IMG/VR virus record: IMGVR_UViG_3300045988_042791
Location: 1 to 39,227 of that record
DNA length: 39,227 nucleotides
From: a virus
Direction: 5' to 3' (one strand)
Part shown: positions 56 through 39,227 of the stretch, piece after piece
Numbering within the stretch: the stretch's first letter is position 1
Layout: each line of letters opens with the position of its first letter
Made by a program: the position numbers and the translations under genes
The notes under the pieces: generated by a model
Databases searched by the model: none
The model's input: only the letters and a program-made list of their open reading frames with translations
What the model was told of the DNA's origin: nothing

Positions 56-1225
56 TCAGACACCAACCGTTTCAACGGTTCCATCGACACCTTGCGTCGC
101 TTTTGCCCACATTTTGCCCACATTCTGCGAAAAAAGCAAACCGCCCATCCTCTCCGACAAATCGTCCAGATCATCGTCGAAGAGATCGGCGTAAACATCC
201 AATGTCATGGCGGCCGACTTGTGCCCCAACTGCCTTTGCACGGTCTTGACGTTAGCGCCGGACTGCACCATGAGACTAGCGGCCGTATGGCGTAGATCGT
301 GAATCGTCATGTGGCCACGGTCCACGCCCGCGCGACGAAGAGCCACCGCGAACCACCCATCGCTTCGCGTCGGATTCCAGCCGTTTCCCATCGGCTCGTC
401 CAAAGGCTCGCCGGGAGCAGTGAAAAGGAAATCGGACGACCTGCGCCCCTCGCATTGCCTGGCGAGCAGTGGACGCAACACCAGTGGGAACATCACCGAA
501 CGTCCATCATGAGTTTTCGGGTCGGTCTCCACCAGCCTGCTGGAAAGACGCGTGATGCTCCTATATATATGCAGCCGACAGCGTTGCAGATCGACATCCT
601 CGACACGGAGCGCCACAAGCTCACCCCACCTCATTCCGCACAGGCCCAAGGTCAGCACGATCGGCTCACGCCAACCGCACTGCATCGCCACACGCGACAA
701 TTCGTCAGCCGAGAGATAGACATGCTTCCGCACCTGCTTGCGCGGCAGCTCGATGCCGTCGCATGGATTGTCGTGGATGCACCGATCGGCCTTTGCCCTC
801 TCCATGAGGCTGCGAAGCAGATTCTCGGCGCGAATCGTCACCGACGCACTGCGTCGTCCGGCCAGATCGGTGACCCACCGCTGCACTTCGTCGCGCGTGA
901 TTGACTGCATCTCCCTCATGCCCCACTGCGGCTCCACATGCACGCGCCAAGCGTCTTCCAGCGACTTGATGTAGCTTGGCTTCGCCTTGGTCTTCTTGGC
1001 GGCCAGCCACGGCTCCCAGAAGTCCTCCACGAGCCTGCGCCCGGCCTGTGGGTCGATGTAGGCTCCGACGCTTTTCGCGGTGGTCACATTGGCCGCTCCC
1101 CACGCATCGGCGTCCATCTTGCGCTTGAAGCCACGCCTTCCGGTGGACGACCCGTCGGGCTTGCGGTAGCGCACCTCGTAGCGTTTGCCGGATTTTGTCG
1201 TGTATTGGCGGATTGTGTAGGCCAT
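56..1225 (-). CDS. int: Tyrosine-type phage integrase
   Basis: 389 aa. C-terminal HDLRHTAAS...LGHKSAAMTLDVYADLF fits the R..HxxR..Y catalytic signature. GAAGGGG RBS. Lies next to attL. Confidence 0.95.
   Translation of the reverse strand: MAYTIRQYTTKSGKRYEVRYRKPDGSSTGRRGFKRKMDADAWGAANVTTAKSVGAYIDPQAGRRLVEDFWEPWLAAKKTKAKPSYIKSLEDAWRVHVEPQWGMREMQSITRDEVQRWVTDLAGRRSASVTIRAENLLRSLMERAKADRCIHDNPCDGIELPRKQVRKHVYLSADELSRVAMQCGWREPIVLTLGLCGMRWGELVALRVEDVDLQRCRLHIYRSITRLSSRLVETDPKTHDGRSVMFPLVLRPLLARQCEGRRSSDFLFTAPGEPLDEPMGNGWNPTRSDGWFAVALRRAGVDRGHMTIHDLRHTAASLMVQSGANVKTVQRQLGHKSAAMTLDVYADLFDDDLDDLSERMGGLLFSQNVGKMWAKATQGVDGTVETVGV
104..121. promoter_or_regulatory. Tandem 11-bp GCCCACATTTT motif; candidate arm-type integrase binding sites (partner pair at 39080-39097)
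   Basis: The 18-nt string TGCCCACATTTTGCCCAC occurs only near the two prophage ends, in the same orientation, 60-100 bp from the core. Confidence 0.45.
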
Positions 1226-1678: not shown

Positions 1679-1882
1679 ATGACCATCGAATACCTGAGCG
1701 TCACCGACGTGTCCAAGCGCCTCGGCATCAGCACAGCCGCCGTCAGCGCCTACAAGCTCCCCCAACCGGACGCCCTAATAGGCCGCACGCGCGGCTGGCT
1801 GCCAGAGACCATCGACCAATGGAACGCCAGCCGCCCTGGCCGAGGCGTCGGCGGCGGACGTCCGCGCAAACACGCCGAATAA
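1679..1882 (+). CDS. Excisionase/MerR-family HTH DNA-binding protein (candidate recombination directionality factor)
   Basis: 67 aa. LSVTDVSKRLGISTAAVSAY...GRTRGWLPETIDQWNASRPGRG matches the HTH pattern common beside actinobacterial integrases. GGAAGGAAGGA RBS. Confidence 0.75.
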   Translation: MTIEYLSVTDVSKRLGISTAAVSAYKLPQPDALIGRTRGWLPETIDQWNASRPGRGVGGGRPRKHAE

Positions 1883-1891
1883 CAAGAAAAC

Positions 1892-1924
1892 GCCCCTCCC
1901 CCAGCATCATGCTGAGAGAGGGGC
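1892..1924 (-). terminator. Hairpin terminator between the convergent HTH and methyltransferase genes
   Basis: GCCCCTC...GAGGGGC stem. On the minus strand it is followed by GTTTTCTTGTTATT. Confidence 0.5.
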
Positions 1925-1929
1925 AATGT

Positions 1930-2646
1930 TTAACCGAGTTTTCCGATGATCTGTTTTTCTTTATCGTTGAGAGGCCATACGGTCACATCCTCCGCAGCCT
2001 TCAGTTCCGCAGCCTTCAGTTCCGCAGCCTTCAGTTCCGCAGCCTTCAGTTCCGCAGCCTTCAGTTCGCTCATCAGATAGCCGCCGCCGAAGATGGACTT
2101 CTTCACGGCCTTCTGCGAAGCGAGCCTAGGCGTGAATGCCACGTCCGAAGCCTTGACGCGAAAATCCACGCCAGCCTTGCCGACCTTATTCAGTCGTGTG
2201 ACGGTCAACAATTCCGGCGGATACGCATACTTCGGCAGATGTTTCCTGCTTTCGCGCCTGACTCGTTTCGCCGTATCGTTGACCAGCTTCGTCAGATCCG
2301 GTGCGGTGCGGATCAGATCATCGCCGAAACTCGTCACGAAGCTGGTGTTGACGATGGCGCCGTTGGCGTATTCGATCGCGCAATCAGTGACCAGCATATG
2401 CGCGCCGTTGCGCGACGTGCTGTTGAAAATCGTGAGGTTCGGCGCGAACAGGAAGAACGGAATACCACGGTCACGATAGAACGTGCATATCTTCGACAGA
2501 ATCGAGAACGGCGGATTATCCACCACCACCTTGCCGTCCGAATAGTCGAAACTCTCGTAGTCGCCGCCCGGATAGAATGGTCGCACCACCTTGCTGGGTT
2601 CGATGCCATACTCACGGCATGCCCAGTCCTTTATCGCCTCATACAC
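1930..2646 (-). CDS. N6-adenine-type DNA methyltransferase, main body (out of frame with its N-terminus)
   Basis: VVVDNPPFS is the (D/N)PP(Y/F) catalytic motif. The first residues, VYEAIKDW, continue the upstream CYTPP fragment if one C is added. Confidence 0.85.
   Translation of the reverse strand: MYEAIKDWACREYGIEPSKVVRPFYPGGDYESFDYSDGKVVVDNPPFSILSKICTFYRDRGIPFFLFAPNLTIFNSTSRNGAHMLVTDCAIEYANGAIVNTSFVTSFGDDLIRTAPDLTKLVNDTAKRVRRESRKHLPKYAYPPELLTVTRLNKVGKAGVDFRVKASDVAFTPRLASQKAVKKSIFGGGYLMSELKAAELKAAELKAAELKAAELKAAEDVTVWPLNDKEKQIIGKLG
1992..2066. repeat. Perfect 15-bp tandem repeat x5 (CCGCAGCCTTCAGTT), encoding (ELKAA)5 in the methyltransferase
   Basis: Five identical units read directly. 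The unit length is a multiple of 3. Confidence 0.95.
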
Positions 2647-2741
2647 TGCGGGGGGGTATAGCAGTCATCCGTGGTCTTCTTCGGTTTGAATTTCTCCACG
2701 AACGCACCGTAATCGTCAATCGTCTGCTGTCTGATGCCCAT
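2631..2741 (-). CDS. N-terminal fragment of the same methyltransferase (MGIRQQTIDDYGAFVEKFKPKKTTDDCYTPP...)
   Basis: It ends 5 codons after the C7 tract. The TTDDCYTPP motif is typical of the N-terminus of small phage adenine methylases. Confidence 0.7.
   Translation of the reverse strand: MGIRQQTIDDYGAFVEKFKPKKTTDDCYTPPQCMRR
2650..2656. repeat. G7 (C7 in coding sense) homopolymer at the methyltransferase frameshift point
   Basis: Counted directly in the sequence cactgcGGGGGGGtat. Confidence 0.9.
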
Positions 2742-2762
2742 TTTGAAAGTCCTAAAAATAAA

Positions 2763-2789
2763 GCCCCTCCTCCATGATGGAGAAGGGGC
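2763..2789 (-). terminator. Rho-independent terminator ending the late/lysis operon
   Basis: 12-bp stem with one mismatch (GCCCCTTCTCCAT / ATGGAGGAGGGGC). On the minus strand it is followed by TTTATTTTT. Confidence 0.7.
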
Positions 2790-2879: not shown

Positions 2880-3158
2880 TCAATCACGGCGCAGCGGATT
2901 GTAGGCCACGCCGAGACCGCTGGCGATGAAGCCGGCCACAGTCGAAATGTAGCCTCCGACCGCAGCGTCGCCGAAGGTCATGAAACCCAAGCCGACGCAT
3001 GAAGCGATGAGACCGGCAACGTAGACCACGGTGCGCACGCCCTTGGAAAAGACGGGCGTGTAAGCCGTCGGCGGCTGGTTGTCCTGACCATCCTCGCACT
3101 CGTTGGTCAGGTTGTTGACGGTGGTTTCCAAAGTCGTTGGCGCTGCATGTTGAGCCAT
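2880..3158 (-). CDS. Putative holin (two TM segments)
   Basis: 92 aa with two hydrophobic helices in the C-terminal half. Lies immediately downstream of the endolysin. AAGGGGGG RBS. Confidence 0.6.
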   Translation of the reverse strand: MAQHAAPTTLETTVNNLTNECEDGQDNQPPTAYTPVFSKGVRTVVYVAGLIASCVGLGFMTFGDAAVGGYISTVAGFIASGLGVAYNPLRRD

Positions 3159-3170
3159 ATTAAACCCCCC

Positions 3171-3971
3171 TTAGAATCGGTTTTGATTGAGTGCCGTCTG
3201 CAAGGCCCGAGCCGTACCAGGACCGAATGATGCGTCCTGCGCCAAGCCGTAGTGCGCTTGGATGGCGCGAATGGTGGCAGGGCCAAGCAGACCATCAACA
3301 CCACAGCCCAGGCGACGCTGCACGGCGCGGATCAGATCACTGCCGCCAGCACCGTAGCGAACCACGCTCGAATCGATTGCCGGACGCGCGTAAGTCCTGC
3401 CGTCAGGCACCTGCTGGCCGCTGATGACGCCATCCACCGAAGTACCCATCACCTGCTGCCAACGGCGCACCGTGGCCGGGCCGACATTGCCATCCACTGC
3501 GATGGCACCGGAATTTGCGGCTGGAGCGGAAGACTGGGCGCCCTGGTATCGCAGATAGCAATTCCACGGATAGTTGTAGTAGGCGCGGATGTTGGTTTCG
3601 CGGCCAGTCTGGTCACCAGCCCTGCCATACGCGGTGCCACGCTCGCTGATGGACGCCTGCGCGAGCTTGCCGCCGCCAAGATAGACGGCCACGTGGTGCA
3701 CGTCGTTGAGCAGGATGTCGCCCGGCTGCGGACTGCCGTTCGCGGGCAGACGGGTCCAGCCGCGACGGGTCAGATTGCCGCTCAGATTGCCGGTGTAGGT
3801 GGCCGTGCCGGTGTCGAAGCCCGCCTCACGCAGGCAGTGGATCACCAGACTGGAGCAGTCGCAATTACCCGCCGAAGCGTTGAAATTCCAACGGTCGGAC
3901 TGGCTGTAGCCGAGATTGGCGACTGCGCACCAGTAGCGCATGCGATTGATGAAAGTGCTTACGCTTGCCAT
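3171..3971 (-). CDS. Endolysin: NlpC/P60- or CHAP-like cysteine peptidase plus tandem peptidoglycan-binding repeats
   Basis: CDCSSLV...HHVAVYLGGG Cys/His pattern. C-terminal GPATVRRWQQVMG / GPATIRAIQAHYG / GPGTARALQTAL repeats resemble PG_binding_1. Confidence 0.85.
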   Translation of the reverse strand: MASVSTFINRMRYWCAVANLGYSQSDRWNFNASAGNCDCSSLVIHCLREAGFDTGTATYTGNLSGNLTRRGWTRLPANGSPQPGDILLNDVHHVAVYLGGGKLAQASISERGTAYGRAGDQTGRETNIRAYYNYPWNCYLRYQGAQSSAPAANSGAIAVDGNVGPATVRRWQQVMGTSVDGVISGQQVPDGRTYARPAIDSSVVRYGAGGSDLIRAVQRRLGCGVDGLLGPATIRAIQAHYGLAQDASFGPGTARALQTALNQNRF

Positions 3972-4659: not shown

Positions 4660-5052
4660 TTAATCTTTTGGCATGGTGTCGCCATCGAAATAATTGCCCG
4701 GCAATCCCAACGAGACGAGCTGCTGCCACTGGTCTTGAGGCACGCACAAGCCCTTGCTCAGATTGACCGTGCAATTGTTCAGCCCGACGAGAATGCCGTG
4801 AGTGGTGCTGGCGGCGGTGAAGACGTAATCCACGCGACCATTCGAACTGACCAGCCCACTATCACTGCCATTGGTGGTGAGACGCAAGCGCGGATTGTCG
4901 CCACTCGTGGACAGCATGTAACAGACGACGCTCACATGGTATTTCACGCCCGCCGTCAACCCCGTGAACGTGATGTCCGATGGTGTCGTGTTCGTCGTCT
5001 TGACGCTCACACCGTCTTTCGGCATGACGCAGGAATTCACGATGAAACTCAT
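4660..5052 (-). CDS. Cassette A: small beta-rich CBM-like or receptor-binding-like protein ending ...NYFDGDTMPKD
   Basis: 130 aa. GGGGGTGA RBS. Shares N-terminal xN(L/S)(C/W)xxP and C-terminal F-x-GDTMP motifs with cassettes B and C. Confidence 0.75.
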   Translation of the reverse strand: MSFIVNSCVMPKDGVSVKTTNTTPSDITFTGLTAGVKYHVSVVCYMLSTSGDNPRLRLTTNGSDSGLVSSNGRVDYVFTAASTTHGILVGLNNCTVNLSKGLCVPQDQWQQLVSLGLPGNYFDGDTMPKD

Positions 5053-5071
5053 GCCATCACCCCCGTAAGGG

Positions 5072-5440
5072 TTAGGCGAGCGGCATCGTGTCCCCGGTGA
5101 AATATCCGATGCTGTCGAGCAGGGTCTTGTTCGCCTGGTATTCGTCCCACGTGCAGATGAGCATGTTCGTCACTGTGACGGTCGGACTGCCTGACTTGAC
5201 GTGATAACTCATTGATATCGGATGGGAATTGTTGATGAGCATCTTGTAGCTGACACGTTGTCTTGCGTTGATGTCGCCATCCGCTCCGATTATCGAGATA
5301 GTGCCGCCTGTGACGTTCACCTCGACGCTGATCTGATATGTCGCCCCATTCACGCTCGGAAGGGTCGTGATATTCACCCACTTGTCGGCTTTCAGGGTGA
5401 TGGTCGAGGATGGGCTCGTGCATAGGTTCGTGACCATCAT
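5072..5440 (-). CDS. Cassette B: paralogous small CBM-like protein ending ...GYFTGDTMPLA
   Basis: 122 aa. This frame gives a beta-strand-like composition, whereas the overlapping 5049-5450 frame is Arg/His-rich. Confidence 0.75.
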   Translation of the reverse strand: MMVTNLCTSPSSTITLKADKWVNITTLPSVNGATYQISVEVNVTGGTISIIGADGDINARQRVSYKMLINNSHPISMSYHVKSGSPTVTVTNMLICTWDEYQANKTLLDSIGYFTGDTMPLA

Positions 5441-5467
5441 CGGACATCACCCGCCCGACGAATCGCC

Positions 5468-5896
5468 TTAATCGCGTGGCATCGTGTCGCCCGTGAAGAA
5501 GCCCGGAAGCCCCCCCCCGAGCGCCGCGTCATACGTGTCGGCGGCTTCCACGCTCAATTCGCTGATGGCCATACCGGAGGGGACGGCCAGGCGCGTGTCA
5601 TTGGCGGTCGGGGTGAAGCGGATCGTATGTTTCCCGACCGTCTGGGCACTTGGGTGTTCGCTCGTGCCGCCGGAAAAGATGCCGATGCTTTTATTCGTCG
5701 TATCGTTGCTGACGATCCTGAACGTGCACACGTATTCCACGCCGACCTCGCACGCGAAAGGCAGGTCGATGTATTCGCCTCTGGTGTTGGCCAGCGTGCC
5801 ACCGGTCATGTACTTCGATATGTCGCCGCCCTTTTTGACGACATGGAAGCCGGTGGGGTCGAACTTTGGGTTCAGCCACAGGTTAATCCTCTGCAT
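5468..5896 (-). CDS. Cassette C: paralogous small CBM-like protein ending ...GFFTGDTMPRD
   Basis: 142 aa. The N-terminus INLWLNPKFDPTG resembles the NLxxNPSFE start of actinophage minor-tail CBM-like domains. GGGAG RBS. Confidence 0.75.
   Translation of the reverse strand: MQRINLWLNPKFDPTGFHVVKKGGDISKYMTGGTLANTRGEYIDLPFACEVGVEYVCTFRIVSNDTTNKSIGIFSGGTSEHPSAQTVGKHTIRFTPTANDTRLAVPSGMAISELSVEAADTYDAALGGGLPGFFTGDTMPRD
5510..5518. repeat. C9 (G9 in coding sense) homopolymer inside cassette C, encoding GGG
   Basis: Counted directly in gaagCCCCCCCCCga. It lies 13 codons before the stop, just upstream of the conserved tail. Confidence 0.9.
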
Positions 5897-6053
5897 TCTC
5901 GTCTCCCTTCACGCTTTCGAGCACGTCGGCGGGAATCAATTTCATGGCCGCGTTGAGCTGACTGGTCAGGATTGCGATTTGCTTGTTGAGAGTGCCGATT
6001 TGCGCGGAAAGCGTGTCGATGACGTCGTTCGCGTCGGCTGGAATCTGAGTCAA
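5883..6053 (-). CDS. 56-aa coiled-coil-like small protein
   Basis: TTG start 5 nt after AAGGAGA. Heptad-like sequence TLSAQIGTLNKQIAILTSQLNAAMK. Its end overlaps the start of cassette C. Confidence 0.4.
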   Translation of the reverse strand: MTQIPADANDVIDTLSAQIGTLNKQIAILTSQLNAAMKLIPADVLESVKGDENAED

Positions 6054-39175: not shown

Positions 39176-39197
39176 AAACCGCCATTTCTGGCGGTTT
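39176..39197 (-). terminator. Rho-independent terminator of the tRNA gene, half phage DNA and half att core
   Basis: Minus sense reads AAACCGCCA-GAAA-UGGCGGUUU followed by UCCUUUUAUUU. Confidence 0.7.
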
Positions 39198-39227
39198 CCA
39201 AAAGTGCCTCCAGCGGGACTCGAACCC
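39187..39227. repeat. attR core (identical to 1-41)
   Basis: Exact 41-bp match. Confidence 0.9.
39204..39227 (-). tRNA. 3' end of a host tRNA gene (T-arm and acceptor 3' strand); the body lies beyond the window
   Basis: GGGTTCGAGTCCCGC-TGGAGGC-A on the minus strand. Isotype cannot be determined from this fragment. Confidence 0.6.

Follow-up and report, generated by a model that had tools for sequence, protein, structure and literature searches.

We conclude that a cargo gene of this prophage, predicted to encode a DNA methylase, is best read as a slipped-strand ON/OFF switch, and we assign this reading a probability of about 0.78. The gene (positions 1930 to 2741, minus strand, of the window, by which we mean the whole 39,227-nucleotide stretch that was analyzed) is frameshifted at a run of 7 C. 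Otherwise-intact alleles, tract differences between identical alleles, parsimony, and dN/dS together make both decay and assembly error unlikely. In the mechanism that we propose, codons 29 to 31 (Thr-Pro-Pro) are written ACC CCC CCC and, with the first base of the next codon if this is C, would give an 8-C run that could gain or lose one C by slipped-strand mispairing during replication. A tract of 8 C would yield the full 270-aa enzyme (ON), while 7 C, as in the prophage analyzed here, 9 C, or 6 C would lead to termination after 33 to 36 residues (OFF). Because the length change would be reversible, lysogen and phage populations would be ON/OFF mixtures. Slippage is the mechanism that we infer from the pattern of tract lengths, and switching within a clone and its reversibility are extrapolated from a comparison between samples.

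The window is a complete 39.2-kb prophage with 41-nt att repeats at both ends, positions 1 to 41 being identical to positions 39187 to 39227. Its tyrosine integrase (56 to 1225, minus strand) is an exact match to a Bifidobacterium adolescentis integrase, and this exact integrase is present on 679 contigs. The host is the B. adolescentis group and the phage is temperate. The methylase gene lies between the lysis cassette and int/att, with terminator-like hairpins on both sides, and is a moron-position cargo gene. Upstream of it are a lysin gene (3171 to 3971, minus strand) and, immediately adjacent, a 92-aa ORF (2880 to 3158, minus strand) that had no family match and that, by position only, is possibly a holin. 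The neighbor on the other side is an excisionase-like HTH DNA-binding protein (1679 to 1882, plus strand). The hairpin and T-run just upstream of the methylase ribosome-binding site and ATG (2763 to 2789, minus strand) are conserved in the clade, and the hairpin downstream of the gene (1891 to 1925, minus strand) resembles the upstream one in sequence. The ribosome-binding site, AGGA (2750 to 2753, minus strand), stands 8 nt before the ATG and is conserved in alignment A3. A consensus scan found no promoter in front of the gene. A TATTTT element is located between the upstream hairpin and the ribosome-binding site, and alternative cargos of the slot have TAGAAT at this position. The slot is exchangeable, and prophages with the identical integrase carry other cargo genes in it (L097, L104, and L101). 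No nuclease-like family matched among the called neighbors of the gene, no res, hsdR, or hsdS was found in the prophage, and the (D/N/S)PP(Y/F/W) motif is absent from the other real-looking ORFs of ≥90 aa in the prophage. The methylase is a single orphan gene that belongs to neither a Type III (mod) nor a Type I (hsdM/S) restriction-modification (R-M) system, in agreement with a preliminary description of this DNA, which had called it an orphan in the moron zone. PHROG searches with three small tail-region ORFs gave no matches, and a distant search of a phage collection with the region recovered only the excisionase neighbor and one unannotated contig.

The ATG at 2741 opens MGIRQQTIDDYGAFVEKFKPKKTTDDCYTPP, after which come QCMRR and, at 2631, a stop codon. 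This 5' fragment (2631 to 2741, minus strand) comprises 31 native residues before QCMRR and carries the FVEKFKPKKTTDDCYTP block that is invariant in the family. The 3' fragment (1930 to 2646, minus strand) is a 238-aa ORF opening at a GTG; this 238-codon remainder supplies the rest of the protein, including the catalytic-type motif in VVVDNPPFS, without the invariant N-terminal block. Human gut metagenome contig ERZ918349 k127_30856 encodes exactly the same 3'-fragment protein. The poly-C tract at the junction (C7, minus strand, or G7 on the plus strand; 2650 to 2656) spans codons Thr29-Pro30-Pro31. Translation at tract lengths of 6 to 10 C gives an uninterrupted 270-codon frame at 8 C, a stop after 3 more codons at 6 or 9 C, and a stop after QCMRR at 7 or 10 C. 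The product at 6, 7, or 9 C is 33 to 36 aa long, and the same toggle is seen in 60 relatives. When repaired to 8 C, the protein aligns with PHROG 21498 over its full length (E = 1e-83) and shares 98% identity with P0001 (270 aa), which bears out the earlier claim that the gene is split at C7 and currently OFF. The idea that the tract is a statistical anomaly was dropped, since a C7 run is at chance expectation in this DNA (4 overlapping matches at 2 loci versus 4.3 expected from dinucleotide shuffles). What makes the tract significant is its location within a conserved ORF, together with the comparison of alleles, and not the C7 run itself.

The gene product is probably an orphan N6-adenine DNA methylase, a prediction made from sequence and structure models, as are its methylase activity and the existence of a target. 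It belongs to a large phage family, PHROG 21498, with about 1,700 clusters at 50% identity. The DNPPF at residues 75 to 79 (2506 to 2520, minus strand) conforms to (D/N)PP(Y/F), motif IV of amino-methyltransferases, and among 149 family representatives D75 and N76 are invariant and P77, P78, and F79 are ≥90% conserved. There is a small chance that the protein has an activity other than DNA methylation, for example by methylating RNA or protein or by binding DNA without catalysis, in which case the switch would control something else. No Pfam or NCBIfam model matched at threshold (for the repaired protein, the repeat region alone matched), and a PDB sequence profile search found nothing meaningful. 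Fold searches of the PDB with two models (pLDDT 73 and 92) gave weak methylase-type matches, which for the pLDDT-92 model were led by the rRNA methylase KsgA and included PacII and T4Dam, all at E > 0.04. In that model, only the beta4-to-beta7 half is recognizable, and the N-terminal half is without the canonical Rossmann-type SAM-binding sheet; candidate sites for AdoMet motif I are RPFYPGGD (54 to 61) and IFGGG (217 to 221). Since the PDB matches of both models are weak, fold could not settle the identity. In favor of a DNA methylase, however, in addition to the conservation of the NPPF motif, weak matches to DNA adenine methylase families recur among the 149 representatives: 14 have sub-threshold matches to EcoRI_methylase (best E = 0.0019), and 6 have weak matches to N6_Mtase (HsdM type). 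ParB_N fusions, a typical feature of DNA methylases from phages and plasmids, number 25 among the same representatives. In BFVD, annotated phage adenine methylases are matched by fold with a probability of 1.0, and homologs carry a depositor annotation of methyltransferase. The adenine methyltransferase of the preliminary description is thus supported by the motif, the weak family matches, and the BFVD folds, but not by a curated family at threshold.

We compared the tract, between samples, in 65 alleles of the close clade, most of which come from short-read metagenome assemblies. The tract is C8, and in frame, in 26 alleles, C7 in 22, C9 in 11, C6 in 1, and interrupted in 5; 34 of the 60 uninterrupted tracts (57%) are out of frame. 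A single tract correction restores a long ORF in all 34 OFF alleles, 33 of them to the normal length of 245 to 284 aa. The exception, L070, has a further frameshift downstream of the tract. Three pairs of alleles (L025/L051, L017/L035, and L025/L053) have 0 mismatches over 780 to 795 nt, yet have 8 versus 9 C, and pairs with 1 to 2 mismatches have 8 versus 7 C and 9 versus 7 C. Fitch parsimony on a neighbor-joining tree of the 65 tips gives a minimum of 22 ON/OFF changes and 29 changes in length. The dN/dS ratio is about 0.19 in ON-ON, OFF-OFF, and ON-OFF pairs alike, at a mean dS of 0.45. Ten B. adolescentis prophages that have the identical integrase include two with 8 C, two with 9 C, three with 7 C, and three with other cargo. 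The NCBI genome assembly GCA_040917965.1 has 9 C and is OFF (its OFF protein, P0079, is named B. adolescentis by NCBI), and the strain-designated record "Bifidobacteriaceae bacterium MCC01943" has an OFF-type ORF. Three features of contingency loci are present, namely, a simple sequence repeat within an ORF, a length that toggles the frame, and, in a gene that is otherwise intact, polymorphism in both directions that is far above the substitution background. The preliminary description had proposed a phase-variable gene and a comparison of tract lengths in related prophages, naming as adverse outcomes a tract of uniformly 8 C or one of uniformly 7 C with other lesions. Neither is what we find: lengths of 6, 7, 8, and 9 C occur in otherwise intact alleles.

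One possible complication is that the OFF state is leaky. CCC-N sites are prone to frameshifting, and, judging from the tract itself, tRNA-Pro would re-pair perfectly in both directions on CCC CCC C. Ribosomal slippage of −1 or +1, or transcriptional slippage, could then produce some full-length protein from OFF alleles, and the tract would tune the level of expression. However, the in-frame C8 is the commonest single length, which suggests that having 8 C matters, and we regard leaky expression as improbable, although it deserves to be kept in mind.

A somewhat smaller probability goes to a hypermutable hotspot that has no selected role in switching. The run would then be a mutational liability in a useful gene, and the deleterious OFF alleles would be short-lived, lost to selection or by reversion. 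Hypermutability and purifying selection are both evident from the comparison of alleles, but an adaptive role of switching is beyond what such data can show, and synonymously broken tracts do exist (ACA CCC CCC in L023 and L028 and ACA CCC CCA in L049). However, this synonymous escape, which is only one mutation away, is seen only in a different genomic context. The tract also consists of rare codons: outside it, 7.3% of Pro codons are CCC and 75% are CCG, the expected frequency of ACC-CCC-CCC is ~0.002, and homologs at ≤59% identity have ACG CCG CCN at these codons. It has been kept through a dS of ~0.45. OFF alleles account for about half of the sample, a proportion that would be surprising if the OFF state were strongly deleterious. 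Finally, a C13 run is present at the same codons in an unrelated lineage, L089; a search of viral contigs for relatives of L089 found only L089 itself.

That the true tract is always 8 C, with 7 and 9 C being homopolymer miscalls of sequencing or assembly, is very improbable. Such an artefact would be favored by the metagenomic origin of most of the data and by the caution that database G/C tract lengths deserve, as they can be wrong (PMC9187656). In addition, the prophage has just one further G/C run of ≥7 nt, a G9 tract (5510 to 5518), which also varies in length, leaving no stable long-homopolymer control. However, an out-of-frame fraction of 57% is far above any plausible consensus error for a run of 7 to 9 nt, the same tract states recur in NCBI genome assemblies, and +1 and −1 states are both common. 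The 6-nt runs of the same loci, which are too short to be a fair control, are mostly stable, with one intergenic run varying from 6 to 8. Simple decay, that is, a dying pseudogene broken at the tract by chance, is equally hard to sustain: some decay does occur, given the second lesions in a few alleles (extra frameshifts in L070 and L049 and a 5' deletion in L092), and the slot can hold other cargo, but one correction restores every OFF allele to a long ORF, OFF-OFF pairs have the same dN/dS as ON-ON pairs, and ON and OFF states interleave among near-identical alleles.

The same gene contains a second repeat, a perfect 15-bp tandem repeat of 5.1 copies (1991 to 2067, minus strand), which encodes (ELKAA)5 within a predicted long helix (residues 226 to 249 of the AF2 model). 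The ELKAA copy number varies from 2 to 7 among relatives and remains in frame. The HsdS subunits of EcoR124 and EcoR124/3 have a helical spacer in which a 4-residue repeat is present in 2 or 3 copies, and a change in this number changes the spacer length that is recognized. Both are short in-frame peptide repeats that vary in copy number within a helix of a protein belonging to a methylase system, but ELKAA is a pentapeptide present in 2 to 7 copies in what is predicted to be a single-chain orphan enzyme, and any effect of it on specificity is pure conjecture by analogy. A broader reading, which we put forward tentatively and consider doubtful, is that these prophages of the B. adolescentis group, which are widespread in the human gut, have contingency loci of their own, comprising the poly-C switch of the methylase, tuning by ELKAA, and a second poly-G switch. 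The lysogen epigenome and the methylation of progeny phage would then be heterogeneous, amounting to a prophage-encoded phasevarion or an antirestriction bet-hedge; the (ELKAA)2-7 helix repeat might adjust the enzyme, perhaps in its specificity or in the geometry of its oligomers; and the second poly-G switch would act in a tail-region gene. If this were true, it would be the first description, in an actinobacterial gut commensal, of a mobile epigenetic system that is phase variable and carried by a phage.

Returning to the slipped-strand switch of the methylase gene, we prefer bet-hedging as its presumed benefit. Methylated progeny or host DNA would escape classical restriction, while unmethylated DNA would escape methylation-dependent restriction or avoid epigenetic costs. 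By analogy with phasevarions, the switch might also influence the expression of host genes. Mucosal pathogens are known to use phase-variable methylases for epigenetic bet-hedging, and the same logic would operate here in a dominant commensal of the human gut, in which this temperate phage is very common. Should the switch prove real, methylomes of B. adolescentis strains would differ from cell to cell owing to the prophage, and the phage would release a mixture of methylated and unmethylated progeny. Both effects would bear on the host range of the phage, on horizontal transfer, on metagenome binning that relies on methylation, and on how readily bifidobacteria can be manipulated genetically. 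A large phage protein family that is without a curated model also gains a testable function. Our literature searches found no report of a phase-variable prophage or phage methylase or of a Bifidobacterium phasevarion, and nothing on mismatch repair (NucS/MutS) in bifidobacteria. The remark in the preliminary description that such a switch seemed undescribed appears to hold for the prophage methylase setting, which appears to be the only new element, but not for G/C-tract slippage as such, which is known (PMC9187656; 10.1101/717272; PMC10334774).

The closest precedent in the same host genus is found in B. breve UCC2003, in which replication slippage at intragenic G tracts switches the sortase-dependent pilus genes bbr_0113 and bbr_1889 (PMC9187656). 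There, as here, the length of a G/C homopolymer decides whether two ORF fragments are fused, and populations there are mixed in tract length, as we propose for the prophage. The pilus tracts, however, are G10 to G12, lie in chromosomal genes for surface structures, and were established by error-corrected sequencing, whereas the prophage tract is C7 to C9, lies in a cargo gene for a predicted DNA-modifying enzyme, and draws its support from comparison only. In Mycobacterium tuberculosis, glpK undergoes phase variation at a 7C tract (10.1101/717272; PMC10334774). This, too, is a 7C coding tract in a high-GC Gram-positive organism, and its reversible frameshifts were detected as homoplasic indels across isolates. 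In contrast to the prophage gene, glpK serves metabolism, lies on the chromosome, and does not encode a methylase. PamA, an orphan Dam-like methylase of a Staphylococcus aureus prophage (Ulrich et al. 2025, as cited in PMC13076061), resembles the gene described here in being a prophage cargo methylase that has no nuclease partner. Such phage orphan methylases can methylate host DNA and alter host phenotype, or shield phage DNA from restriction; PamA differs in belonging to the classical Dam family and is not reported to be phase variable. Finally, the phasevarions of Haemophilus, Neisseria, Helicobacter, Moraxella, and Streptococcus depend on phase-variable Type III mod or Type I hsd methylases (PMC13076061). 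They share with the prophage gene a simple sequence repeat in a methylase ORF, with ON/OFF expression that for the prophage gene is a proposal, and the expected consequence, a methylation motif present or absent genome-wide, would be the same. In contrast to these systems, which are chromosomal, belong to recognized R-M types, often alongside a cognate res or hsdR gene, and are found for the most part in Firmicutes or Gram-negative pathogens, the gene described here is an orphan of an uncurated family, carried by a temperate phage of a gut actinobacterium.

The methylase-like gene, on the minus strand of the window from 2741 to 1930, is split at a run of 7 C in coding sense (G7 at 2650-2656 on the plus strand), where the minus strand reads ...GAT GAC TGC TAT ACC CCC CCG CAG TGT ATG AGG CGA TAA. 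The 5′ ORF starts at the ATG at 2741, which has AGGA 8 nt upstream of it, and encodes MGIRQQTIDDYGAFVEKFKPKKTTDDCYTPP, then QCMRR and a stop. The 3′ ORF, also on the minus strand, starts at the GTG at 2646, ends at 1930, and encodes 238 aa that include VVVDNPPFS. When alternative lengths of the run are translated, 8 C gives a single 270-codon ORF, 6 or 9 C gives a stop after three further codons, and 10 C has the same outcome as 7 C. All that the preliminary description stated as fact, including the split ORFs, the C7 junction, and the 270-codon frame at 8 C, is correct. A C7 run on its own is not unusual in the window (2 loci, compared with 4.3 overlapping matches expected from dinucleotide shuffles), and the case for a switch rests on context and comparison.

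The comparison drew on GTDB species representatives (9 loci) and IMG/VR (80 loci); isolate and metagenome loci were added later. In the close clade (72 to 98% protein identity; 65 alleles, window included), the tract, read after GAY GAY TGY TAY A, is C8 in 26 alleles, C7 in 22, C9 in 11, C6 in 1, and interrupted in 5 (CCCACCCC twice, CACCCCCC twice, and CACCCCCA once). The length that keeps the frame open (ON) is 8 C, except in a sub-lineage with CAA as the next codon, where it is 9 C; in this sub-lineage, allele L026 is out of frame (OFF) at 7 C and L093 is ON at 9 C. Correcting the tract alone gives an ORF of at least 245 aa in 34 of the 34 out-of-frame alleles. An extra C-terminal frameshift is present in one out-of-frame allele (L070) and one interrupted allele (L049), and a deletion in locus L092 (1480-1510) has removed the methylase 5′ end and brought the 3′ portion of the 92-aa ORF, the upstream neighbour, directly against the C8 tract. 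Some decay exists, but it is exceptional. The C8 tract of L092 is itself the deletion endpoint. The CCCACCCC tract, found in L001 (B. ruminantium DSM 6489) and L011, near 6110, is in frame and changes the nearly invariant Pro30 to His; to judge from this substitution, the allele may be locked or inactivated.

In three allele pairs (L025/L051, L017/L035, and L025/L053, all 8 versus 9 C), tract length is the sole difference, with zero mismatches over 780 to 795 aligned nt, and pairs with 1 or 2 mismatches have tracts of 8 versus 7 and 9 versus 7. Of ten prophages that share both the integrase sequence and the site, two have 8C, two have 9C, and three have 7C; the other three hold different cargo. 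On a neighbour-joining tree of 65 tips, the minimum under Fitch parsimony is 29 changes of length and 22 between ON and OFF. CCC is rare among Pro codons, with a share of 7.3% in this gene when the tract is left out and 9.3% in long ORFs of the prophage (CCG, 64 to 75%), and the combination ACC-CCC-CCC has an expected frequency of about 0.2%. The three third positions of the tract are nearly invariant in the clade, with pi of 0 to 0.09, compared with a mean of 0.205 at fourfold sites.

It is very improbable that the off-frame lengths are sequencing or assembly artefacts. G-tract lengths in databases can be unreliable (PMC9187656), and the other long G/C run of the prophage is variable too, so there is no stable internal control, but an artefact would need a 57% consensus error at a run of 7 to 9 nt, which is not credible. 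The 9C tract is present in NCBI genome assembly GCA_040917965.1, whose OFF protein, P0079, carries the NCBI organism name B. adolescentis; the OFF product of that assembly is on four contigs, and an OFF-type ORF is present in the strain-designated record 'Bifidobacteriaceae bacterium MCC01943'. Long-term pseudogenes are ruled out, since dN/dS is 0.19 alike for ON-ON, OFF-OFF, and ON-OFF pairs (pairwise, first 215 codons; mean dS 0.45), which means that alleles now OFF have been subject to purifying selection of the same strength as ON alleles. We put at roughly 0.78 the probability that a prophage cargo gene, which most likely encodes a DNA adenine methylase, really carries a hypermutable ON/OFF tract. 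The proposal of a phase-variable gene that is OFF in the window is thus supported by the tract census, the ON/OFF changes on the tree, and the dN/dS of OFF pairs, and the comparison of related prophages that it called for yields lengths of 6 to 9 C and identical alleles that differ at the tract only.

The repaired protein has no family match in Pfam or NCBIfam except in its repeat region, and the family as a whole is without a Pfam model. PHROG 21498 ('unknown function') is matched over the whole length of the protein (E = 1e-83), and the family is large, with about 8,000 word-index hits scored and 1,723 representatives at E up to 0.001 in an exhaustive search of 50%-identity cluster representatives. 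Among 149 diverse representatives, R54, P55, F56, Y67, V73, D75, and N76 are invariant, and T23-T24-D25-D26-C27, T29-P30, and P77-P78-F79-S80 are at least 90% conserved. NPPF is motif IV of gamma-type and HsdM-type N6-adenine methylases. An N-terminal ParB_N domain is fused to the methylase-like module in 25 of the 149 (about 1 in 6; family proteins P0121-P0268; each representative was scanned individually), and there are weak matches to EcoRI_methylase in 14 (best E, 0.0019) and to N6_Mtase in 6. Depositors named homologs 'DNA N-6-adenine-methyltransferase', 'methyltransferase', and 'type I R/M methyltransferase subunit'. The AF2 model from a deep alignment is confident (pLDDT 92.4, pTM 0.79) and its PDB neighbours are all weak (KsgA, PacII, RlmG, and T4Dam, all E > 0.04); a first structure model gave probability 1.0 matches to predicted structures of phage 'adenine-specific methyltransferase' proteins. 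We read the protein as quite probably a minimal, divergent N6-adenine DNA methylase. The original assignment as an adenine methyltransferase is probable: the conserved DNPPF and the weak family and predicted-fold matches favor it, and the missing Pfam/NCBIfam match does not.

The gene has a second, in-frame hypervariable element, a perfect 15-bp × 5.1 tandem repeat (1991-2067, minus strand) that encodes (ELKAA)5 and forms a long helix in the AF2 model (residues 226 to 249). Its copy number in relatives is 2 to 7, always in frame, and differs between near-identical alleles. A candidate second switch, proposed from the sequences compared, is in a tail-region gene: C9 on the plus strand at 5510-5518 is G9 in coding sense near the 3′ end of a 142-aa ORF (5468-5896, minus) with no PHROG match. 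In eleven relatives this run is 7, 8, 9, 10, or 11 G, and the conserved C-terminus ...GFFTGDTMPRD is kept at 9 only. This ORF is one of three small tandem ORFs (142, 122, and 130 aa; 4660-5896, minus) between the tail and lysis genes, which match no known family and have only a C-terminal (Y/F)F(T/D)GDTMP in common.

Homologs of the methylase-like protein with at most 59% identity retain Thr-Pro-Pro but encode it as ACG CCG CCN, so the protein motif needs no C run. In the homolog L089/L095 (IMGVR_UViG_3300045988_087156; 44% identity, 53% GC, unrelated phage lineage), the same codons, near 4210 of L089, contain C13, which breaks the frame; lengths of 11 or 14 C would restore it. This may be convergent evolution; among viral contigs, no relatives of this homolog were found for comparison. 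L023, L028, and L049 (gene at 6001), whose tract is synonymously broken by an ACA codon, belong to a different phage type, in which the gene has no upstream hairpin and lies between a portal/MuF-like gene and a protease-capsid gene. A long variable tract accompanies the cargo-slot context.

The prophage is 39.2 kb long and fills the window; 1-41 and 39187-39227 are identical 41-nt direct repeats (att core), exactly at both ends, with a sequence like the 3′ end of a tRNA. The integration site in B. adolescentis adjoins a serine dehydratase gene. The integrase (56-1225, minus), directly after the left att, is identical residue for residue to 'site-specific integrase [Bifidobacterium adolescentis]' and is on 679 contigs, complete genomes among them; the window also matches a 105.7-kb contig from human gut metagenome ERZ918349. 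Beyond three small ORFs come the gene for an excisionase-like HTH protein (1679-1882, plus) and the methylase-like gene; after it are a 92-aa ORF (2880-3158), which matches no family and is possibly a holin by position, and the lysin (3171-3971). A T6 run (1271-1276; A6 on minus) in the intergenic stretch that separates the integrase from the small ORFs has 6, 7, or 8 nt in relatives. The methylase-like gene is flanked by two terminator-like hairpins, one just upstream (2789-2763) and one just downstream (1925-1891), that have AACATT(T)GCCCCT...GGGGAGGGGC in common, which suggests that a cargo cassette was inserted via duplication of, or recombination at, the late terminator. Some prophages that have the identical integrase and share the chromosomal site hold other cargo in the slot that the late terminator and the excisionase gene enclose: a gene for a 233-aa protein (L097 and L104, 1579-2280) or a 53-aa ORF (L101, 2135-2296; complete genome CP198973.1). 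Each follows a similar hairpin and has TAGAAT 7 to 9 nt before its ATG, and these cargos look leaderless. The slot is an exchangeable cargo (moron) slot, in agreement with the moron-zone location first proposed. All other real-looking ORFs of at least 90 aa in the window lack an amino-methylase motif, and no neighbour matches a nuclease family, so the gene is an orphan, as described.

The comparison shows that the frame depends on tract length, that alleles identical elsewhere differ in this length, and that selection maintains the gene. Slipped-strand mispairing in replication would add or remove one C, reversibly; ON cells would produce the enzyme and OFF cells a 33- to 36-residue peptide. 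The 238-codon ORF downstream does not include the invariant block of the N-terminus and, even if translated, would be expected to have no activity. OFF could be leaky if tRNA-Pro slips by -1 or +1 at a low level on the C run, or if slippage occurs in transcription. A hairpin and T-run stand just before the ribosome-binding site, so transcription of the gene may rely on read-through out of the late lysis operon, a timing that would suit the methylation of progeny genomes. It may instead be driven by a weak promoter after the hairpin, where the methylase-like gene has TATTTT and the alternative cargos have TAGAAT at that position. The consensus promoter scan gave no match upstream of the gene. 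The hairpin-free context and broken tract of L023, L028, and L049 fit an ancestral self-methylation role in lytic growth; the long variable tract would then belong to the version in the cargo slot. As the benefit of switching we prefer bet-hedging, in which methylated DNA would escape classical restriction and unmethylated DNA would escape methylation-dependent restriction or an epigenetic cost. A phasevarion-like effect on host genes would be the alternative.

The mechanism is the classical one of contingency loci. Slippage switching has been established experimentally for G10-G12 tracts of pilus genes in Bifidobacterium, the host genus of this prophage (PMC9187656), and for 7C tracts such as that of glpK in M. 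tuberculosis, like the prophage host a high-GC Gram-positive (10.1101/717272; PMC10334774). Methylases that vary in phase (phasevarions) are familiar too; those described are chromosomal Type III or Type I systems, for the most part of pathogens (PMC13076061), whereas the gene described here is an orphan cargo gene. S. aureus PamA, cited in that paper, is a prophage orphan methylase that reprograms its host; neither it nor other prophage orphan methylases of this kind are reported as phase-variable. Literature searches of open-access papers turned up neither a Bifidobacterium phasevarion nor a phage or prophage methylase switched by an SSR, consistent with the view that such a gene had not been described.
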